From positions 158,418-222,417 of the forward strand of contig CAKVMI010000003.1 in assembly GCA_934772525.1 (NCBI GenBank): DNA of 64,000 nucleotides, written 5' to 3'. The notes below the pieces were generated by a model. It saw only the letters and a program-made list of their open reading frames with translations. It did not search any database and had not been told where the DNA came from. Every line of letters begins with the position of its first letter. Position 1 is the stretch's first letter. Origin of the DNA: an uncultured Clostridia bacterium. GTDB taxonomy: Bacteria; Bacillota; Clostridia; Christensenellales; UBA1242. Positions 1,848-61,814 of the stretch are shown in pieces. Made by a program: the position numbers and the translations under genes.

Positions 1848-3182
1848 TTAAATTTGCCCTTTTTGATGTATTTTATTTAATTCTAGAATTACTTTTGCTA
1901 TAGTTTCAGCATACAGCGTGCTAAGCGACAAACTTTCGGACTCTACCATAACCCGAATAACCTTTTCGGTTCCGCTTTTTCGAACTACCACACGCCCGAA
2001 ATCTCCAAGGCTTGCAGAAACCGAATTTATTACAGCCTTTAATTCATACGACTCTATAATTTCATCGCCAAAATTTGTAGCACAATTAATTGTTTTTTGT
2101 GGAAGTGTTTCGGCATCCATTAAAATATCTAACTTCTCGCCAGTAATCTTTAATACTTCAGCCAAAATTAAAGACGCAAGTATTCCGTCCGACACCGACT
2201 GATAATCGGATAAAATAATATGACCCGATACTTCGCCCCCAAGATTTGCTCCAATTTCTGCCATTTTTTCTGACACATTACGGTCTCCCACGCTTGAGAT
2301 AATAGCACCCACGCCACGTATTTTTAATTGGTTTAAAATTCCGCCATTTGAAAGAGTTGTACAAACAATTAAATTTTGCTTTAATTTGCCAAGGGAATGT
2401 AAATAATTTGCTAAAACATACATTATGGTATCGCCGTCATAAACTTTACCACTCATTGACACTACAATTACTCTATCCGCATCGCCGTCGTACGCAAAAC
2501 CGCAATCGGCATTTTCTTCTAGTACCCGCTGAACCAACAGTTCGGGATGCAATGCTCCAACACCTTCATTTATAAATACTCCACTTGGATTGTTAGATAT
2601 TGACACCACTTCGGCACCTAAGTTTTTGAAAACTCTTTCGGTAACTGCTGAACCCGCCCCGTTAGCGTTATCTAGCACAATTTTTAAGCCGTCAAGCGTT
2701 ACGCTCGTTACATTTTCTAAAAACTCAGCGTAAATTTCCACATTTTCAGGACAAGTGTAATATTCTCCCGCTTTTGAATAATCTAGAGTGATGGGTTCTA
2801 ACATAAATCGCTCTATCTCTTCTTCTTCAGAAATGCAAAGTTCTTCGCCTGCTTTATTAAAAATCTTAAACCCATTAAAAATATTTATGTTATGCGACGC
2901 CGTAACAACCACACCAAAATCTGCATTAAGTACTTTAGTTAAAAAAGATACCCCCGCCGTAGGGCAAACTCCAATATCTAAAATTGTTCCGCCCATACTT
3001 AAAATGCCTAAAGACACCGAATGCGAAAGGATACCCCCGCTAGGTCTGGTATCACGCGCTAGAACCACACGTGGATTAGCACGATATTTAGATAGTGCCA
3101 CCCCAAGTTTAAACGCTAATTCACAATTTATATCCTTTCCCACTTCCCCACGTATTCCGCTTGTTCCAAAATATTTCGTCAT
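1848..3182 (-). CDS. glmM: phosphoglucosamine mutase
   Basis: 444-aa ORF. It has the N-terminal MTKYFGTSGIRG, the phosphoserine loop TASHN and the metal loop YDGDADR, and is collinear with GlmM-type phosphohexomutases. Confidence 0.85.
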   Translation of the reverse strand: MTKYFGTSGIRGEVGKDINCELAFKLGVALSKYRANPRVVLARDTRPSGGILSHSVSLGILSMGGTILDIGVCPTAGVSFLTKVLNADFGVVVTASHNINIFNGFKIFNKAGEELCISEEEEIERFMLEPITLDYSKAGEYYTCPENVEIYAEFLENVTSVTLDGLKIVLDNANGAGSAVTERVFKNLGAEVVSISNNPSGVFINEGVGALHPELLVQRVLEENADCGFAYDGDADRVIVVSMSGKVYDGDTIMYVLANYLHSLGKLKQNLIVCTTLSNGGILNQLKIRGVGAIISSVGDRNVSEKMAEIGANLGGEVSGHIILSDYQSVSDGILASLILAEVLKITGEKLDILMDAETLPQKTINCATNFGDEIIESYELKAVINSVSASLGDFGRVVVRKSGTEKVIRVMVESESLSLSTLYAETIAKVILELNKIHQKGQI

Positions 3183-29277: not shown

Positions 29278-29293
29278 TGTTTCACGTGAAACA
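29278..29293. promoter_or_regulatory. parS site 1 (TGTTTCACGTGAAACA)
   Basis: Exact palindromic match to the ParB/Spo0J parS consensus. Confidence 0.85.
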
Positions 29294-29567
29294 TTTTTCA
29301 ACACCAATGTTGAAAACTCGTGAAATTAATTTTGTTAATTTGGTCGATTGTACGGGATTTCATTTTACATTTTTTGTTCTGTTTTTTGAATATGCGATTT
29401 TTAACAATTTTGGGTTGGTGTTATATTTGTTAATTTTTAGGTTTTTACGTTTAGAATATTTTGTATTCGGGTATCATGGTTGCTATTTTTTGTTTTCGAT
29501 TTTTAACTATGATACTCTATTCACTAGAAGCCTTTTTATATTTTTTGATTGTTTATATTCTTACCAT

Positions 29568-29583
29568 TGTTTCACGTGAAACA
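29568..29583. promoter_or_regulatory. parS site 2
   Basis: Identical 16-mer. Confidence 0.85.
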
Positions 29584-29843
29584 TTTTTTATTTTATGATT
29601 ACTTTATGTATTGCATCAATTTTATTTATGGTGCATATTTAAGATTCATATTATCTACAAGGGCAATGATTTTTATTTTGTGGTTTGCGTGTGCTTATAA
29701 TTACAAAAACTTGATAAAAAATGTATTATAAGTTTTGCAAGAGTGTTTATTTATCTTATTAAATATAATTTAATACTTAAAACACATACAGAATGTTAAA
29801 ATTTGTAATTTATTGTATTTATTAAATAATATATTAGTTAAAA

Positions 29844-29859
29844 TGTTTCACGTGAAACA
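29844..29859. promoter_or_regulatory. parS site 3
   Basis: Identical 16-mer. Confidence 0.85.
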
Positions 29860-30030
29860 TTTTTTTGTTTAAAACTACGTTTATTGTTTTGTAACTATAG
29901 TTATTTATCTTATTTGAAACTAATTAGTACATATTGGTATTATTATTTACTATAATTCATCTGGTGAAAATTTTTTATGTAATATAAATATATCCTATCT
30001 AATTGTTAATAACTTAATATACTTCTGTAA

Positions 30031-30046
30031 TGTTTCACGTGAAACA
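30031..30046. promoter_or_regulatory. parS site 4
   Basis: Identical 16-mer. Confidence 0.85.
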
Positions 30047-30304
30047 TTTATTACTTTCCTTCTATCGTTTATTAAGTAAGTTGCAGGCAAAAGCCACAAA
30101 ACCAATTAAATACTGGCTTATCTAGTGATAATATCACGCTAGGGAAGTAGTATTTACTTCAGAAAAGTATTACTATAAACGAATTTAAAAACGTCATTAA
30201 AAACAATATTAATTTAATTACCCGTAGAAAACACGCAAGTATTTAATGTAGAATACTATTACATTTATGTTATATCAGCACAATATTATCTAAGGTACCC
30301 ATAA

Positions 30305-30320
30305 TGTTTCACGTGAAACA
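30305..30320. promoter_or_regulatory. parS site 5
   Basis: Identical 16-mer. Confidence 0.85.
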
Positions 30321-30492
30321 TTATCTATAATATGTATTAATTCTATTGCACCAGACAACAACTATACGGGTAGCCGATACCTAATGACACAAATTAATAA
30401 ACATCATACCCAAGCCATATAGCATGATAACAATGCATACGCTCAAAGGTAAAACTAGCTATGGCAACAGTCACTCAATTGATAAATGTAAA

Positions 30493-30508
30493 TGTTTCAC
30501 GTGAAACA
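30493..30508. promoter_or_regulatory. parS site 6
   Basis: Identical 16-mer. Confidence 0.85.
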
Positions 30509-50813: not shown

Positions 50814-50832
50814 TTTTTATTCGCTACTTTCA

Positions 50833-50868
50833 AGTAACCACTTAAAGATTTAAGTTGGTTACTTTTTT
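50833..50868 (+). terminator. rpmH-operon terminator
   Basis: AGTAACCACTT...AAGTTGGTTACT followed by TTTTTT. Confidence 0.7.
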
Positions 50869-52290
50869 ATGCTTAAAAATTCCCTTCGTTTTATTATTTT
50901 TTACCGCCTTTATTAAGCCATTTAGTGTAATTGTTTTAACTTATTTAAAATCTATTCGAAGATTTTTCGTTTAATAAATTTATTAATTAAAACCCACAAA
51001 ACCCAGTGTCAATTTTGGAAAAATATTAACTTTTATTATTCGTTTAATCTATCATTTTTACACTTTGCACCACCCTTAATTACCGCTATTAATTTTGTTT
51101 TGAATAATTTATCGTCCAATCTTACACTCGTCAAAACGGGGCTATTTTAACGCTGATTTGATTTGTAGATAACTTTAACATAAGTACTTTTATGGCTTTG
51201 ATGTATCCAAGATTTGTAAAATAAATTCTTTTTTATTATAACTGATTTTATCCGGTTTTTAACTTCTTTAAGTTTCTCTTTTTTTTGTTAAAAAACTTCT
51301 CTTTATTCGATAGCGTTTATCTAGTTTTAATGGCTTCAGAGTTTCTTTAATCACCAATAATTAATATTTTTAATCTGGACATTTCTTTCAATTTTTTGTA
51401 CTTTAATGCAACTAGATTTTGTTGTAAAAATATTTTGTTTTAACAAAGTTTATCTTGTTTTTGGCATTAGTGTTTCTATGTTTACCAGACATTTATTGGT
51501 AACTAAGACAATTTTTGGTATTAAAACTGTGGGCTGTTTTTTTTCCTTTAAATTGTCTATTATTGCGTTCATTTGTTAGTATTCGTCCATTTGTATCTAA
51601 TCGTCATTTGTGTTCTTGAAAAGCTTTCTTTATTCCCGGGAAGAAAGAATTTAGCGTGGGGTTTAAATGTAAGTTGGCATTTTTTTGCTTCCTTACGCTT
51701 TTTACTTAGTTAAGTTTAAAGTGCTTAAACGAAAATTTTTGCCCCTAAATCTTAACTATTTGCATTGTATCATACACTAGTTTCTTTTGCACGAAATTGT
51801 GTCACTTTTTATTTCACATAACGCTCAAACCCTTTATTTTAAAGGGAAAAAAGTTTTTGCAATATTTTATAAATTAATTAATTATTTAATAAAATATGCA
51901 TTCTAGCGTTTTTATTAGTTGCACAGTAAAAGTAATTAGTTCCTATAATTTTTAACTTTTGCAATAGTTCATTTACTCTCTTTATTTACATACTCTTCTT
52001 TTGGAATTCAAATACAATTTTAGAAACAATTTTAGAACTCATTTAATAAACTCTCTCCATAACTTTACTTTTTGGAACTAAAAAATGAAGATAGTATTTT
52101 TGTCACGCATTTTATTATGCAAGTTTAAAATTGCTATCCCTTCGTTAATTTTCTTTAAACCAAACTACTATTCACTTTTAAAACTCTCAAAAACTTTTCT
52201 TCTTTTTCTTTTTCTTATATCTTTTTCTTTTAACTTCTTTTATTATATATATTTTTATTTTTTTTATAAGGTTTTTTATTTATAGGTTTA

Positions 52291-52380
52291 CAGATTTTGA
52301 CAGATTTTGCCCATTTTTGCCAGTTTTTGCCCATTTTCGTCAGATTTTGCCCATTTTCGTCAGTTTTTGTCCATTTTCGT
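52291..52380. repeat. nine consecutive 10-bp units (4.5 copies of the 20-mer CAGWTTTTGCCCATTTTCGT) with exactly phased T-tracts
   Basis: cagattttga cagattttgc ccatttttgc cagtttttgc ccattttcgt cagattttgc ccattttcgt cagtttttgt ccattttcgt. Confidence 0.85.
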
Positions 52381-53081
52381 TCAATGGTATTTTTTATTTT
52401 CTCAAAAAATTTATCAAAATTTATAATTTCAAATATTTTTTCAATTCATCTAAAAATTTAAATTAGCGTCAAAATTAATTTGTTTTTAAAAATCATACAT
52501 CAATAATTTATTCAAATCAATACAAAAAAAACGATTTATTAAATGTGGTGCAAAATTTAAAAACTTATAAACTAATTTTCAATAATATTTTTAACCGCTG
52601 TTAAAATTCCACTAATCAAAATTATTTTAAAATTAACTGCCACATTTTTTATATTCAAATTTCATTCTTAACAACAATACAATTTTTACTACATATCTGA
52701 ATTTATCATTTAATCAATTTTTATAAAAAACATTTCACAGATTGTAAATTACCAATTCCATTTCCTAAAAATCCACACAATATTTACCCATTAGTTTACA
52801 TATATTTTATTTTTTTTACCAATCATTAGCTTCATCATTTTTATTTCATACCAATCATTAGCTCATATATTATATATAAAAATAATAGTTCAAGTCCAAA
52901 ATAATTTATGGCTTTCGTGGGGTTTTACTGACTATTTTTGACCTTTCTAAACTTATAAATTTTATCCACTTTTATGTTGAAAAAATGTTGAAAACCTAAG
53001 ATAATTTTTCAGTAAAACAAGTTGTAATTTCATTCACTTTTTTAACAATTCATTATACTATTTTTATAAAAATTTCATCAC

Positions 53082-53113
53082 AAAAAAATAGGTAATAGGA
53101 TTGTCCTATTACC
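53082..53113 (-). terminator. terminator of the 53188 membrane-protein gene / dnaA-dnaN unit
   Basis: Perfect 10-bp stem GGTAATAGGA-TTG-TCCTATTACC, followed by a U-run on the minus strand. Confidence 0.6.
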
Positions 53114-53187
53114 AAAATAAAAAAACTTTTACTAATTTTTTTACGCCAATTTCAATTTAAACTAATTTCACCAAAGCGCATTTTTTA

Positions 53188-53868
53188 TTATTCTGCTGGT
53201 TCTACATCAATTAAACATGCGTTTATAATTTTTTTATCTCCCTTTAGTGATAGATAAAACACAATGTTTATAATAATAGAACCCACTCCGGCGTACAAGC
53301 AATTTAAAGCAACCTTACCAAATAAGTAAAAGCCTGTCTCAAATATAAGCGAAACTAAATACTTCACAAGTTCAATTATAAACGCTCCAGCAATAGTAAA
53401 TACAAATGCAAAAATACATACAACAATTGCTTTTGCTTTTACTCTATTGCTCTCATTTTTTAGGTAATTGTAATATACCGAAACCCCGATAATTGCAAGC
53501 ATTAAGCCTATTAACATACTAGCAAACAAGTTCAACACAAAGTAGTTATATAGCCCAAAAATATTAAACACATTCAAAAGCATAAATATTGCAATATAAA
53601 ACCCAATCGCAAGCCAATCTTTTAAGTTCACCCTTTTATTTTTAATTAAATAACTAAAAAGGTATAAACACAACGCAGTCACAAGCGAAAACACAAAACT
53701 TTTAACCATTCCTTTAGCGAATATGTTAGAAGTATGACTTATAACCGCCACATTAGACATTATTGCAATCAATAAATCAAGTGCAAACAAAAGACCCAAA
53801 ATTGTTAAAAGCACAATTTCAGATGAATCAAACAACTTTTCTTCAAGTTTGCCACTACGATTACTCAT
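53188..53868 (-). CDS. polytopic membrane protein, function unknown
   Basis: About six TMs. The ATG at 53868 (MSNRSGK) follows a GGGGA RBS; the track start at 53955 is unlikely. Confidence 0.55.
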   Translation of the reverse strand: MSNRSGKLEEKLFDSSEIVLLTILGLLFALDLLIAIMSNVAVISHTSNIFAKGMVKSFVFSLVTALCLYLFSYLIKNKRVNLKDWLAIGFYIAIFMLLNVFNIFGLYNYFVLNLFASMLIGLMLAIIGVSVYYNYLKNESNRVKAKAIVVCIFAFVFTIAGAFIIELVKYLVSLIFETGFYLFGKVALNCLYAGVGSIIINIVFYLSLKGDKKIINACLIDVEPAE

Positions 53869-54429
53869 GTTTTTGTTTTCCCCACTATTATTTTGCCAAA
53901 AGATAACCTTTTTAATTTTAAATAATAAATTTTGAACCAAAAAAATATAACTCAAAAGTTACTCTTAAAATTAAAAATTCTTTTAGAATTCACAACAAAT
54001 TACCACTTTAGCATTAAGCGGAAGATGGGGAATAGTTATTCCACAAGTTCCACTTTCTTTTTTTAAGTGTAACCTAAGTATAATCTAAAAAAATTTTTTG
54101 TAAAGGTTTTTTTAACACCAATTCCATTTTCTGTTAAAATAGACGAATTTTGGACATTTTAAAATAATTTTTATTTTTTTGTTGACAAATTTTATTTTCT
54201 GAAGTTTTCAACACTTTTTCAACACCCACTTTAAAAGTGTTCAAAACTGAGCACTTTTTAGATTGCGGAGGCTCTCAGACGATTTGTGGTAGAATTTTTA
54301 ATATTAAAAAATTATATTTATAATATAATTGCACCATTAAATTTTGAGAGAGATTGTTCTAGCGTTAACTTTTTTCGATTTAATTTTAATAATTTAACAG
54401 TCACTTGTCAAGTTGTTAAAATTAATCAC

Positions 54430-54478: not shown

Positions 54479-55582
54479 TTAGTTTACAATTCGTACTGGT
54501 AAAATCAAATATAAGTACTCACTATTTTCAGTAGCAGTAATTGTACAAGGAGCAATAGGAGAAGTAAAGTTAATGTTTACATATTCATCACTAATGCTTT
54601 TTAAACTTTCACTAAAGTATCTTGCGTTAAATGCAACCGTCAATTCTTTACCTTTTGTGTTAATAGAAATCTTTTCGGTAATGTTTCCAAGGTCAGATGA
54701 ACTTGATACACTCATAATGTCTTCTTTTATATCAAAAGTAATCAAATTGTTCTTATTTAATCTTGCAAGTAAACTTGCTCTTTCAATAGCTTCTTCCAAA
54801 AATCTCTTAGCAACGGTAACAACTGTTGTAGTAGATACCGGAATAACTTGCTTGTAGTTAATAAAATCACCATCAAGTAATCTTGTTATAATCTTTGTTT
54901 CGTCTACATTAATCAAAATGTAATTCTTTTGAATGAAGATTTCAATTTCTTCATCATCATCGCCAATAATTTTACTAATCTCAGCTAAACTTCTTGCTGG
55001 GCAGATAAATGTAAATGATGAAGTGCTTCTAATTGGCTTAGAGCAAACCGCCATTCTATATCCGTCTAGAGCAATACCCGTTATTTTATCTGGAGTAACT
55101 TCCATAAGTACACCCTTTAAAATTGGTCTTGCGTCATCATAAGATGCTGAGAAAATTGTTTTTGCTATCAAATCTCTAAAATCATTTTGCTTAATTTTAA
55201 TAGAATCTGCATTTTCAATCTTTTTAATTTCTGGAAATTCACTTACTGGTAAACTTTGTAAGTAACCTTCAGAGTCGGTATATTTAATTTTTATTTTATT
55301 TTCATCTGGATTTTTTGTAATTTCGATTTTTTCGTTGTTTAACTTCTTTATAAGTTCAGCAAAGAACCTACCAGCAACAACCGTTTCACCTTCAATCTTT
55401 ACATCTGCTACAATACGTTTTTCAATACTAAGTTCCAAGTCAGTAGCTTGTAATGTTAGTACATCATTTTCAGCTTTTAGTTTAATGCCTTCTAAAATTG
55501 GATTTGTAGACCTAATAGCAGTTGCTTTTAAAACAGTATTTACTGCTTCACTAAGTTCAAATCCGTCACAAATCAGTTTCAT
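54479..55582 (-). CDS. dnaN: DNA polymerase III beta sliding clamp
   Basis: 367 aa, three-domain collinearity, MKLICDGFELSEAVNTV start and position after dnaA. Confidence 0.95.
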   Translation of the reverse strand: MKLICDGFELSEAVNTVLKATAIRSTNPILEGIKLKAENDVLTLQATDLELSIEKRIVADVKIEGETVVAGRFFAELIKKLNNEKIEITKNPDENKIKIKYTDSEGYLQSLPVSEFPEIKKIENADSIKIKQNDFRDLIAKTIFSASYDDARPILKGVLMEVTPDKITGIALDGYRMAVCSKPIRSTSSFTFICPARSLAEISKIIGDDDEEIEIFIQKNYILINVDETKIITRLLDGDFINYKQVIPVSTTTVVTVAKRFLEEAIERASLLARLNKNNLITFDIKEDIMSVSSSSDLGNITEKISINTKGKELTVAFNARYFSESLKSISDEYVNINFTSPIAPCTITATENSEYLYLILPVRIVN

Positions 55583-55787
55583 TTGTTTTCTCCTTTATAT
55601 ATAACAATTTATTTTTATTTTTTAGTTAGTAATAGTAATAGTAGGGAGTGTTGAAATGTTGAAATCTAGCTCTATCCCTTTATTTTAAATGATTTTTGAG
55701 ACTAAAAACTATGTTAAAAACTTTTTAAACTTTTTAACACTATGTTAAAAACTTGTTTAAAAACTAATTTTCAAAGAACAACTTTAC

Positions 55788-57188: not shown

Positions 57189-57840
57189 TTTACCTATCCT
57201 TAAATCTACTCTACTATTATTATAATTTATATTTTTAATATAAATACTTGCATTTAAAAACAACTAAATACAAAAAATAAATTAATAATAATTATAAATA
57301 TTATAAACTAATTTGCCAGATTTTGCAAGTACTAGTGTACATTTTATCTGACCTTTTGCATTAATCTTTTTAAATCTCTTGCATAAAAAAAACGTTATTA
57401 ACTTGCGTTACAAAAACCTTTTCATCAAATCATTACCAAATTTTATTAACTTACTATATAATTAATTTTTATATTAATTATAAATAAAATTAATATAATA
57501 AAAAAATTTTTCCCGTGCAATAAATTGCATTTGCAATATAAAAAATATATATATATTATTATAAAATGCACTTATCCGTAAATCAAATCATCATTTGTTT
57601 TATAAATTATATTTATATTAATATATAATACGCTTGTCCGTGTTATAAGTTATTTTTATATTATATTAAATATTAATTAATTTTTAACGGCAGTTGTGCT
57701 TGTTGCGTAATAAGTGTAAGCATATAAAACTATTTACTTATAATTTTATTTTTTAATTTAAATAACTATTAATAAATAATATAAATATTATTTATAGTTA
57801 TATATATATTATAATAGTTATAATATTGATATTTTATTTA

Positions 57841-57890
57841 ATAAAAATCTGCCCCCAATATCAATATAAAAATCCGCCCCCAATATCAAT
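57841..57890. repeat. two tandem 25-bp copies of ATAAAAATC(T/C)GCCCCCAATATCAAT
   Basis: Read directly; there is one mismatch between the copies. Confidence 0.9.
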
Positions 57891-58406
57891 TGCATAATCA
57901 GGCGTATGCATACACACTCACACCTAAAATTAATATTACGCGTACGCATACTCACACACGCGTATAATTAATTTTACACACACGCATGCGTACACACACC
58001 CCTAATAATAATATCACGCATGAACATACTCACGCACACATACACGCTCCTAATAACAATTACTAGGCATATGCGTACATACACGCCTAATATTAATATT
58101 ACACGTACGCCTAAACGCATGCACCTAAAAATAATATTAGATGCACCCGCCTAGTAATAATACTAGACGCGCACCCGTTTATAATAATTAATACTAGGAG
58201 TGCATACACGTATACGCCCCTAAAATTAACATTACGCATACGAAAGCACGCACGCCCCTAAAAATAATATTAGGCGTACCCGCCTAGTATCAATACTAGA
58301 TGCATACGTGCGCATACGCTCCTAATAATAAATACTAGGCACGCCCACGCATACCCGCCCCTAATAATAAATACTAGGCACGCGCACGTACGTACGCCCC
58401 TAATTA
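57891..58406. repeat. degenerate array of 13 units: CCTA-AT-rich palindrome-TAGG alternating with G+C-rich purine/pyrimidine-alternating tracts
   Basis: CCTA anchors lie at about 57922, 57999, 58048, 58086, 58110, 58124, 58150, 58218, 58257, 58283, 58320, 58359 and 58398. The last four are regularly spaced at 37-39 bp. Confidence 0.8.
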
Positions 58407-58614
58407 TTATTATTTATTATATATTGTATTTATTAACATAAAGTCCATAATTCACTGTGGAAAAGTTTTATTTTTATAAAGTTTTCAACAATTTTTAAAC
58501 GATTGTTAAAAATAATTTTCAGTAAAATTAAATCTATAAAATACAAAAAATAGTTGTTTATTTTTTATAAAAATTATAAAATAATTATACTTAAAAAAAC
58601 TCAAGGAAATTACA

Positions 58615-59706
58615 ATGAAAATCAATAAATTAAAATTGCAAAACTTTCGAAATTATGAGCAAATTGAAGTGGAGTTTGGCGAAAATGTTAATTGTTTAGT
58701 GGGTCGAAACGCACAAGGAAAAACCAACCTAGTAGAGCCGATTTATATAATTAGCGCATTAAAGTCATTCAGAAATAGTAAGCTTGTAGATTGTATAGAA
58801 GACACTAAAGACTCCGCCAAAATTATAGCAAATATTAGTTCAGTGGTTGGCACCAAAACTATAGAATATACCATTAATAAAGATGGCACAAACGAGTACT
58901 TGGTAAACCACAACAAAATCACAAAAAAGCGTGATATGTACGGGCATTCATACGCCGTAATATTTTCGCCCGACGAATTAAAGTTGGTTAAGGGTTCTCC
59001 CGATGTCAGACGTGACTTTTTGGATACCGACATTTGTCAAATTAGTAACATCTATTCCGATTTACTAGACCGATACGATAAGGTTTTGCAAAGCCGAAAC
59101 AAACTTTTAAAATTTTCAAAATCTCGTGATAAATTAAACGCAGAATTAGATGTTTGGGACATTTCGCTTGCAACTCTTGGTGCTCAAATTACTAAAACAC
59201 GTGAAAATTTTGTGGCAAATATCACACGTCACGCCGAAAAAATTATGCAACATTTATCCAAAAACGCCGAAACTTTAACCGTTAGTTACATTGGAATAAA
59301 TGGCGAAACCAAGGACGAAAAATGTGAAAATTTACTATCTGCATTAAAGTTTAATAGAGCCAAAGATATAGAACTAGGTTACACTTCTATTGGCCCACAT
59401 CGTGATGAAGTTAAGTTTTTTATAAACGGATTAGAAGTAAAACCATTCGCTTCCCAGGGGCAACAACGTTCGGTAGTTTTAGCACTAAAACTTGCCGAAA
59501 TGGAAGCAATAAAAGAAGTAAAAGAAGAGCCGATTTTAATTTTAGACGATGTATTTAGTGAACTAGATTCCACTCGTCAAAAACTACTTTTAGAATATCT
59601 TTCGGGAAAACAAGTCTTCATAACTTGCACAAATTTTAGAAAAAACGACCTTCAAAATCTGACAAAATTCAGAATAAAAAACGCAAAAATAGTCGCCGAA
59701 AATTAA
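58615..59706 (+). CDS. recF: DNA replication/repair protein RecF
   Basis: Walker A GRNAQGKTN, signature SQGQQRS and Walker B ILILDDV. Confidence 0.9.
   Translation: MKINKLKLQNFRNYEQIEVEFGENVNCLVGRNAQGKTNLVEPIYIISALKSFRNSKLVDCIEDTKDSAKIIANISSVVGTKTIEYTINKDGTNEYLVNHNKITKKRDMYGHSYAVIFSPDELKLVKGSPDVRRDFLDTDICQISNIYSDLLDRYDKVLQSRNKLLKFSKSRDKLNAELDVWDISLATLGAQITKTRENFVANITRHAEKIMQHLSKNAETLTVSYIGINGETKDEKCENLLSALKFNRAKDIELGYTSIGPHRDEVKFFINGLEVKPFASQGQQRSVVLALKLAEMEAIKEVKEEPILILDDVFSELDSTRQKLLLEYLSGKQVFITCTNFRKNDLQNLTKFRIKNAKIVAEN

Positions 59707-59876: not shown

Positions 59877-61814
<1,938 letters not shown>

Follow-up and report, generated by a model that had tools for sequence, protein, structure and literature searches.

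Between dnaA and recF of an uncultured gut Clostridia bacterium lies a 566-bp array of degenerate repeats (positions 57841-58406 of the window, by which we mean the whole 64-kb stretch of DNA analyzed here). With moderate confidence, we interpret this array as a lineage-specific, slowly evolving, non-coding minisatellite of variable copy number, located in an expanded, promoter-distal spacer and outside the conserved origin of replication. Within the greatly enlarged spacer that separates the divergent dnaA and recF-gyrB-gyrA units, it takes up the promoter-distal part, and it is found outside the conserved initiation machinery; the assignment of the unwinding module itself rests on a match to a published motif. 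We place the array outside the conserved origin because it is missing from the nearest relatives, because its unit number varies, and because the unwinding module is conserved elsewhere. Most likely, the array has no sequence-specific job.

Repeat architecture of the array

The array differs from its surroundings in base composition. A first-pass annotation of this DNA had described a shift in composition within the AT-rich dnaA-recF spacer, and we indeed find a G+C fraction of 0.41 across the array, rising to 0.47 locally, compared with 0.13-0.19 in the flanking spacer. The plus strand, which is the sense strand of recF, is rich in C and A (A 208, C 160, T 128, G 70). No open reading frame (ORF) of at least 50 amino acids is found across the array. 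As the annotation had also noted, the array opens with two tandem 25-mers of the form ATAAAAATC(T/C)GCCCCCAATATCAAT, followed by thirteen degenerate units, a number that our repeat analysis reproduces approximately (Table 1). The CGCCCC(T/C)AATAT motif of the 25-mers is similar to the junction motif of the units. Each unit is built from an AT-rich core (CCTAA...TA(G)G) and a C/A-rich tract in which purines and pyrimidines alternate, with aCaCGCCCCTAAtAaTAAtAtTA representing the best-conserved motif among the units. Measured from start to start, the units are spaced by 14-78 bp, most commonly by 37-39 bp, and Tandem Repeats Finder reports arrays with a period of 38 bp at 57908-58039 and of 39 bp at 58313-58404. 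A 92-nt block recurs at a distance of 133 bp, indicating that the array grew by duplication of multi-unit blocks. Together, the head-to-tail arrangement of units in the range of roughly 10-100 bp (periods of 25, 38, and 39 bp; direct-repeat families D1-D4) is that of a minisatellite or variable-number tandem repeat (VNTR).

The array is not an assembly artefact, as it was recovered in assemblies from other samples in the form of two variant alleles, L091 and L083. A 330-kb metagenome scaffold from ENA (L081) matches the window, and a Logan assembly (L082) is 100% identical to it over 13.4 kb. We also considered a clustered regularly interspaced short palindromic repeat (CRISPR) array and rejected it: the whole period is only 38-39 bp, which is too short, and both halves of the period are degenerate and related between units. 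No cas genes are present among the neighbors dnaN, dnaA, recF, gyrB, and gyrA, the rest of the window having had no systematic cas scan.

The array may have been generated from a two-part unit of about 38 bp, copied head to tail by replication slippage or by unequal recombination. Its alternating C/A-rich tract is what would be expected to remain of (CA)n or (CG)n microsatellites after transitions. Growth of the array would have taken in one 133-bp block duplication, and the copies would then have diverged to 60-80% identity.

Variation between strains

The number of units varies among strains of one species, as expected for a VNTR, in the three strains that we could compare in short-read assemblies. 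The window carries two copies of the 25-mer and about 13 units, L091 carries one copy and 13 units, and L083 carries one copy and only 5-6 units, although this last allele could be collapsed in the assembly. The single 25-mer in L091 and L083 reads ATAAAAATCCGCCCCTAATATAAAT. In L091 the units follow in the same order as in the window, with 19 substitutions and one 1-bp indel, and the shorter L083 array would fit a loss of units by deletion between related copies. Array identity between the window and L091 amounts to 96.5%, which is close to the values for recF (96.7%), for the AT-rich spacer (96.9%), and for the right-hand spacer (97.6%). The array thus evolves near the local background rate, and there is no sign that it is either constrained or hypermutable between strains. 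In the G+C-rich tracts, transitions and transversions occur at 30:16 compared with about 78:60 in the flanks, a slight excess judged by eye from few counts; transitions that preserve the alternation are not significantly in excess. The units differ among themselves by 20-40%, far more than the roughly 3.5% by which the strains differ, so that the duplications, measured against the spread of the species, are old.

Two further differences between the window and L091 are located outside the array. One is an additional stretch of about 105 bp inserted into the AT-rich spacer of L091 (about 2560-2665 in the minus-strand reading), which contains a short alternating tract of its own, ATGCGTACGTGCTACG. 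Over the segment 55788-59706, dnaA is 99.4% identical between the two strains, recF shows the lower value given above, and the spacer is about 96.5-97% identical, which suggests a putative recombination boundary at or near the dnaA promoter.

The dnaA-recF spacer in related species

We compared the dnaA locus of the window with that of ten related species, obtained by exact-protein look-ups. The identity of the DnaA homologues falls off gradually from 99% to 56%, and one homologue at 79% is labeled "Christensenellales bacterium" in one source; among the GTDB representative genomes the best DnaA match is only 43-45% identical, and there is no close relative there. The divergent arrangement of recF and dnaA-dnaN is present in nine of the ten species, with L145 being rearranged upstream of dnaA. 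The first-pass annotation had proposed to examine related dnaA-recF spacers and had held that absence of the array from relatives with equivalent origins would speak against its functional reading. This is what we observe: nine of the ten species, including the nearest relatives L084 and L144, lack the array and keep equivalent origins. The dnaA-recF spacer measures 1426 bp in the window, but only 289 bp in L084 (DnaA 85% identical to that of the window), about 172 bp in L144 (80%), 135 bp in L086 (79%), 172 bp in L088 (76%), 175 bp in L139 (73%), 144 bp in L141/L142 (71%), and 131 bp in L143 (67%). These short spacers (131-289 bp) have a G+C content of 12-24% and are devoid of alternating tracts. 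The motif TTGCAAGT of the probable dnaA promoter is present in the spacers of the relatives as well, where it adjoins dnaA. In L145, we found a long AT-rich region upstream of dnaA, again without such an array.

L138 (DnaA about 78-80% identical) contains a different array in its 561-bp dnaA-recF spacer. This array covers 282 bp (1975-2256, read on the minus strand) and has a G+C content of 63% in a locus of 33% G+C. With 82% alternating steps, it is composed of seven units of 36-45 bp, in which an alternating CA/CG tract of up to 30 bp ends in a GTTAAC palindrome. Relative to recF, its C/A-rich strand is oriented as in the window. Only about 75 bp separate the end of this array from the start codon of recF, and its right end, GCACCTAATAATAAAT, resembles the right end of the window array. 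The two arrays share 14 10-mers compared with 5.4 in shuffled sequences (p ~0.006), and their longest common word of 12 nt is not significant. On a neighbor-joining tree of DnaA, the species of the window and L138 do not group as sisters, and each has closest relatives without an array. Among 152 loci (1.45 Mb), dense alternating G+C-rich tracts were found only in the species of the window and in L138.

The conserved origin module

Sequences that define the basal unwinding system of bacterial origins are tandem DnaA boxes, a short G+C spacer, and repeated DnaA-trios with the consensus 3'-GAT-5' (PMC8287927). A stretch in the dnaA-dnaN spacer corresponds to this published motif definition, and it is on this match that we assign it as the unwinding module (Table 1). 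The tandem boxes in this module are two copies of TGTTGAAAT. The module is near base-for-base conserved across the ten related species sampled, being inverted in L144. The probable unwinding site is thus separated from the array by 2.2 kb and by dnaA itself. Within 57841-58406, we found no DnaA box (either TTATCCACA or the clade variant TTTTCAACA, allowing for up to one mismatch), the nearest boxes being just outside at 58456 and 58482, and the combination of tandem boxes, G+C spacer, at least three DnaA-trios, and AT stretch does not occur in the array. The array also is not conserved among related origins as an oriC core would be. The array and the basal unwinding system hence share the same origin region, but the defining motifs are absent from the array and a textbook copy of them is located elsewhere. 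We thus rejected the reading of the array as an oriC core: neither box nor trio module could be located in it, and the module is conserved at another site. The first-pass annotation had suggested a role of the array in initiation or in origin sequestration, a proposal that these findings and the distribution among species do not support. Likewise, the AT-rich stretch next to the array, which it regarded as a candidate unwinding region, is not the best candidate. The array is located where GC skew changes sign: negative values reach to about 58.4 kb and positive values follow, which places the origin in this neighborhood.

The canonical box TTATCCACA clusters nowhere in the window, and the DnaA boxes of this clade appear to be of the TTTTCAACA/TGTTGAAAA type. 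Two exact 11-bp tandem pairs that resemble DnaA boxes of the TTTTCAACA type, ATGTTGAAAAA x2 and TTTTCAACACT x2, are found at 52974-52994 and 54205-54225, and TTATCCACT is located at 52962; clusters of DnaA boxes thus extend across about 5.5 kb around dnaA-dnaN. In L144, the dnaA-dnaN spacer (2584-3120) is 535 bp long and the module of trios and boxes is inverted (CTACTATTACTATTACTA, with TTTTCAACA x2 upstream), which suggests that the origin module may have undergone a local inversion or rearrangement in this species.

The 16-bp parS palindrome TGTTNCACGTGAAACA is absent from the array. A ParB-parS centromere was rejected on this ground and because six perfect sites are clustered elsewhere in the window. 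These sites (TGTTTCACGTGAAACA) start at 29278, 29568, 29844, 30031, 30305, and 30493 (window 29278-30508) and span 1.23 kb inside a gene-free stretch of 1.9 kb with 25% G+C, where about 0.5 matches with up to three mismatches would be expected per window. By its motifs, this is an unusually tight tandem centromere cluster. The ORFs flanking it are not ParA or ParB by Pfam, one being CvpA-like and the other without a family. An iteron-type origin or plasmid-type centromere was rejected for the array as well: its spacing of 14-78 bp is irregular and out of helical phase, and no rep or par gene flanks it.

Alternating tracts and DNA supercoiling

We analyzed the alternation of purines and pyrimidines in the array. 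Strictly alternating runs of at least 10 nt occur 13 times in the array (10-25 nt in length, 206 nt in total), and the remaining 63.4 kb of the window contain 24 of them. When the array is shuffled with its dinucleotides preserved, 5.9 +/- 1.9 runs and 71 +/- 22 nt result, and the observed values were reached in none of 1000 shuffles, in line with the strict alternation reported by the first-pass annotation. The mean cost of the transition from B- to Z-DNA is calculated as 0.9-1.5 kcal per dinucleotide for these 13 tracts, with GCACGCGCACGTACGTACGC (58378-58397) having the lowest crude threshold among them. By this measure, the G+C-rich tracts are Z-DNA-prone, as had been recognized before.

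A supercoil-responsive element could take advantage of such a design. Here, the 13 tracts would flip to Z-DNA and the AT cores would extrude hairpins, and superhelicity at the promoters and the origin would be buffered; we consider this unlikely. The alternation, far above chance and unique in the 64 kb, would fit such a function, as would the confinement of dense arrays to this species and L138, in which alternation and high G+C content are shared but sequence is not. The array is, moreover, located between the likely dnaA promoter and the recF-gyrB-gyrA genes, and the L138 array comes close to the recF start codon. A crude two-state calculation with textbook parameters, applied to single tracts within a domain of 5-10 kb, places the B-Z thresholds at a superhelical density (sigma) of -0.038 to -0.050, and melting of 40-100 bp of pure-AT flanks would need -0.038 to -0.046; narrower ranges from this estimate are -0.041 to -0.050 for the B-Z thresholds and -0.043 to -0.046 for melting. 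On naked DNA, the tracts could thus compete with melting of the AT flanks. In vivo, unconstrained superhelicity averages about -0.03. Both transitions are estimated to demand stronger supercoiling than this, and the transition to Z-DNA would therefore depend on transient supercoiling driven by transcription. According to Rahmouni and Wells, Z-DNA reportedly forms in vivo upstream of active promoters. Negative supercoils from divergent dnaA and recF-gyrBA transcription would be expected to concentrate at the array. Gyrase promoters are known to respond to supercoiling: the Escherichia coli gyrA promoter is described as inhibited by transcription-coupled negative supercoiling (PMC6170449). The first-pass annotation had also proposed supercoil sensing, for which the analogous array in L138 is the only indirect support.

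Several observations are difficult to reconcile with a supercoil-responsive element. Nine of the ten related species do without the array, and strain L083 has only 5-6 units. Alternation-preserving transitions show no significant excess, and the periods are out of helical phase in both arrays (38-39 bp here, 36-45 bp in L138). The stems formed by the AT cores would contain only 6-7 pairs, mostly A-T, and the superhelicity required exceeds the in vivo average. A more far-reaching version of this idea, in which such arrays arose or were kept at least twice in the dnaA/recF-gyrB-gyrA spacer of this clade as a supercoil capacitor that couples to topology the expression of initiator and gyrase and perhaps also the opening of the origin at a distance of 2 kb, appears to us quite improbable. 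On the minisatellite reading, which we favor, any effect would be physical, and a spacer prone to form Z-DNA and hairpins may absorb some negative supercoiling between the two divergent promoters.

AT-rich cores and protein binding

The AT-rich cores had been described as hairpin-capable palindromes, each bracketed by CCTA...TAGG. We find 13 CCTA motifs, as this would require, but only 5 TAGG and 8 CTAG; TAGG or CTAG closes only about half of the cores, and several others end in TTAC. Such bracketing is thus not a feature of every unit. Palindromy of the cores is modest, with 5.9 complementary pairs being above the 3.9 pairs of shuffled sequences but near the 5.0 pairs found in neighboring AT-rich 20-mers. 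CTAG, assumed to be a rare tetranucleotide, is in fact over-represented in this genome (173 observed, 125 +/- 10 expected).

The array could consist of sites at which a protein, probably a dimer, binds in a sequence-specific manner by recognizing CCTAA-N8-TTAGG or CTAGTA-N4-TACTAG cores or the direct repeat CGCCCCTAATAATAA, in an iteron- or operator-like arrangement that would titrate or organize a regulator beside dnaA. There are about 15 direct copies of the motif CGCCCCTAA(T/A)A if the 25-mers are included, and differences among units are less frequent in the AT cores (3/57) than in the G+C tracts (29/149). CTAGTA-N4-TACTAG (two copies, 0.02 expected in the window) and CCTAA-N8-TTAGG (one copy, 0.23 expected in the window) are found only in the array, and between the palindrome types an A-to-G change in the left arm is paired with a T-to-C change in the right arm, as read from the sequence. 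No candidate gene adjoins the array, however, which is flanked by dnaA and recF, and a 226-amino acid protein encoded downstream of dnaN is also found in species without the array. The core of the L138 array is a different one (GTTAAC), and it is hence unlikely that one binding factor is shared between the two species. In addition, many units are hybrid or imperfect palindromes that barely exceed neighboring AT-rich DNA, their spacing is irregular and out of helical phase, and canonical centromere sites, the six parS palindromes, are located elsewhere. We regard a binding-site array as rather improbable.

Transcription and dispersal

On the minus strand, which is G/U-rich when transcribed, we found eight terminator-like hairpins compared with 1.0 expected, and predicted RNA folding has a z-score of -11.6 relative to shuffled sequences. 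The array might accordingly be transcribed into a structured RNA, or its hairpins might act as terminators that shield the dnaA promoter from leftward transcription, but either function seems very unlikely. The hairpin tails are interrupted AT runs and not U-tracts, and the L138 array is entirely without T-rich tails, on which basis a terminator array was rejected. No gene runs leftward into the array, and no convincing minus-strand promoter was found to the right of it. Strong folding is expected of G/U-rich repeats full of short palindromes, and we put the high z-scores down to this property. In Rfam, nothing reaches the gathering threshold, with sub-threshold matches to eukaryotic miRNA hairpins (E >=0.036) representing hairpin noise; a structured RNA gene was rejected as no family could be assigned.

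G+C-rich palindromic clusters in AT-rich spacers are reminiscent of dispersed repeat elements, and an enlarged spacer that holds an AT-rich part and direct repeats is also seen in iteron-type origins. The array could be a copy of a dispersed selfish repeat, such as a repetitive extragenic palindrome or bacterial interspersed mosaic element (REP/BIME), a miniature inverted-repeat transposable element (MITE), or an element resembling Rickettsia palindromic elements (RPE), or else the remnant of an integrated plasmid or phage origin. We see hardly any chance for this. The other 63.4 kb of the window contain no second copy or significant fragment; k-mer and blastn-short searches returned only chance 11-13-mers. 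Distant-mode blastn searches against PLSDB (72,556 plasmids) and INPHARED (50,697 phages) gave no match. Three pattern scans of IMG/VR returned 0, 0, and 7 matches, the seven being single 18-mer chance matches in ordinary sequence of 37-48% G+C. A metagenome scan with the core motif, in a collection that does not contain this species, yielded 46 single chance matches and no arrays. Of the 25 longest inverted-repeat pairs listed, none brackets 57841-58406, these being AT-rich low-complexity pairs only, and we found neither terminal inverted repeats nor a rep or integrase gene beside the array. Alternating-tract arrays at bacterial origins are not described in the literature that we searched. 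Together with the results for Rfam, plasmids, phages, and IMG/VR, this agrees with the statement in the first-pass annotation that no equivalent has been described.

Gene neighborhood

The predicted dnaA promoter is located about 510 bp downstream of the point where the array begins. The genes in the segment 48352-62000 are ordered rnpA, yidC, jag (plus strand); dnaN, dnaA (minus strand); recF, gyrB, gyrA (plus strand). Compared with the usual Firmicute order, the dnaA-dnaN block, together with a gene for a 220-234-amino acid protein, is inverted, an arrangement common to the clade (L084, L086, L088, and L138-L143). In the window, this protein has 226 residues, is encoded directly downstream of dnaN (53188-53868, minus strand), and has no Pfam match; its position is kept in most relatives (220-234 amino acids), and it may represent an uncharacterized origin-linked gene.

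Further spacers near the origin are likewise enlarged in this species. A gene-free stretch at 50814-53188 (2.4 kb, 24% G+C, no ORF of at least 100 amino acids) corresponds to a gap of 0.2-0.5 kb between jag and the gene for the 226-amino acid protein in relatives. It contains an iteron-like tandem array at 52294-52380, made of four copies of CAGATTTTGCCCATTTTCGT with a 10-bp sub-period (about nine copies).

Table 1. Positions of genes, array components, and candidate origin elements in the window
Feature	Position	Strand	Basis or remark
dnaN	54479-55582	-	Flanking gene
Putative unwinding module: AT-rich stretch, TAGTAATAGTAATAGTAG (six TAG/TAA DnaA-trios), GGAG, TGTTGAAATGTTGAAAT (tandem DnaA boxes)	55627-55665	+	dnaA-dnaN spacer
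dnaA	55788-57188	-	Translation, Pfam
Probable dnaA promoter, TTGCAA-17-TATAAT	57300-57328	-	Promoter scan; predicted
Two tandem 25-mers	57841-57890	+	Tandem Repeats Finder: period 25, 2.0 copies, 96% match
About 13 degenerate units after the 25-mers	57891-58406	+	Tandem Repeats Finder, repeat search, strain alignment
Higher-order duplication: 92-nt block 58079-58170 versus 58212-58303, 79% identical, 133 bp apart	58079-58303	+	Repeat search, alignment
Two most regular units, 39 bp each: CCTAATAATAAATACTAGG, then 20-nt alternating tract	58321-58398	+	Tandem Repeats Finder, unit alignment
Right boundary: last copy of the CCCCTAAT motif grades into unique AT-rich spacer CCTAATTATTATTATTT	58399-58420	+	Sequence
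DnaA-box-like pair right of the array: TGTGGAAAA 58456-58464, TTTTCAACA 58482-58490	58456-58490		Kept in L083 and L091
recF	58615-59706	+	Translation, Pfam
gyrB, then gyrA	gyrB 59910-61814	+	Flanking genes

Discussion

We compared the array to the known systems that come closest to it. Bacterial intergenic minisatellites, for example the VNTRs of mycobacterial interspersed repetitive units (MIRU-VNTRs), also consist of degenerate head-to-tail units of tens of bp in intergenic DNA, with unit numbers that vary among strains, and slippage or unequal recombination is the likely mechanism in both cases. MIRU-VNTRs form a dispersed family of loci, whereas our array is a single locus as far as visible. 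It further differs from them in its two-part unit of AT core and G+C tract, in the age and divergence of its units (60-80% identical), and in having a counterpart of like design at the corresponding site of a second species. Iterons, such as those of P1 and RK2 or the 12-mers and 39-mers of Vibrio chromosome 2, have in common with the array many short direct repeats next to an initiator gene and AT-rich DNA, and a unit near 39 bp. The array, by contrast, has neither a Rep-type initiator nor a cognate gene in its vicinity, its repeats are irregularly spaced and out of phase, sister species lack it, and DnaA boxes and the unwinding module are found elsewhere.

Rahmouni and Wells are said to have used (CG)n/(CA)n tracts that form Z-DNA as in vivo probes of transcription-driven supercoiling. 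The tracts in our array are similar to these probes in being strictly alternating over 10-25 bp (up to 30 bp in L138) and in their location upstream of or between divergent promoters. They differ from (CG)n probes in that they are natural, mixed in sequence with TA steps, presumably less Z-prone, and arrayed 13 times. Yeast mitochondrial GC clusters and ori/rep elements are short, G+C-rich palindromic clusters, some of them origin-linked, which are dispersed and mobile. The GC clusters resemble the array as G+C- and palindrome-rich, strain-variable clusters in an extremely AT-rich spacer, but they belong to a eukaryotic organelle and have no sequence relationship with the array, which is one tandem locus. 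Enterobacterial REP/BIME elements are gyrase-binding extragenic palindromes whose hundreds of dispersed copies are mostly found at gene 3' ends. Like the array, they are extragenic, imperfectly palindromic, G+C-rich for their context, and sometimes tandem, and they are linked to DNA topology. The array differs from them in its location between two promoters and in showing no dispersal.

Several of our findings weigh against a plain minisatellite. The array has persisted for much longer than the strains have been separated, in a genome whose relatives have a very short spacer here. L138, which is not a sister species, has a second, similarly designed array at this site. Under neutrality, this would require either two independent gains or an old element that was lost many times, and either history would fit better if something favored such sequence at this site. 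The array also persists as a G+C island (41% here, 63% in L138) in intergenic DNA of about 15% G+C, where mutation should erode it. Finally, the AT cores vary less among units than the G+C tracts, which could, however, also be explained by mutation bias. Persistence, the L138 analogue, and maintenance of the G+C island together leave some limited room for a structural role and a still narrower one for protein binding.

If the array is only a minisatellite, it provides a strain-typing marker for an uncultured gut bacterium. It also illustrates that a conspicuous repeat beside dnaA need not belong to oriC, and that the working origin module of this clade can instead be read from the conserved DnaA-box pair and DnaA-trios in the dnaA-dnaN spacer. 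If the structural reading were true, the array would represent a natural bacterial case of arrayed non-B DNA that senses or buffers supercoiling, positioned between the genes for the initiator and for gyrase. Until now, artificial (CG)n inserts have been the main means of exploring this idea, and it is the analogous array at the same site in the non-sister species L138 that makes the question worthwhile.

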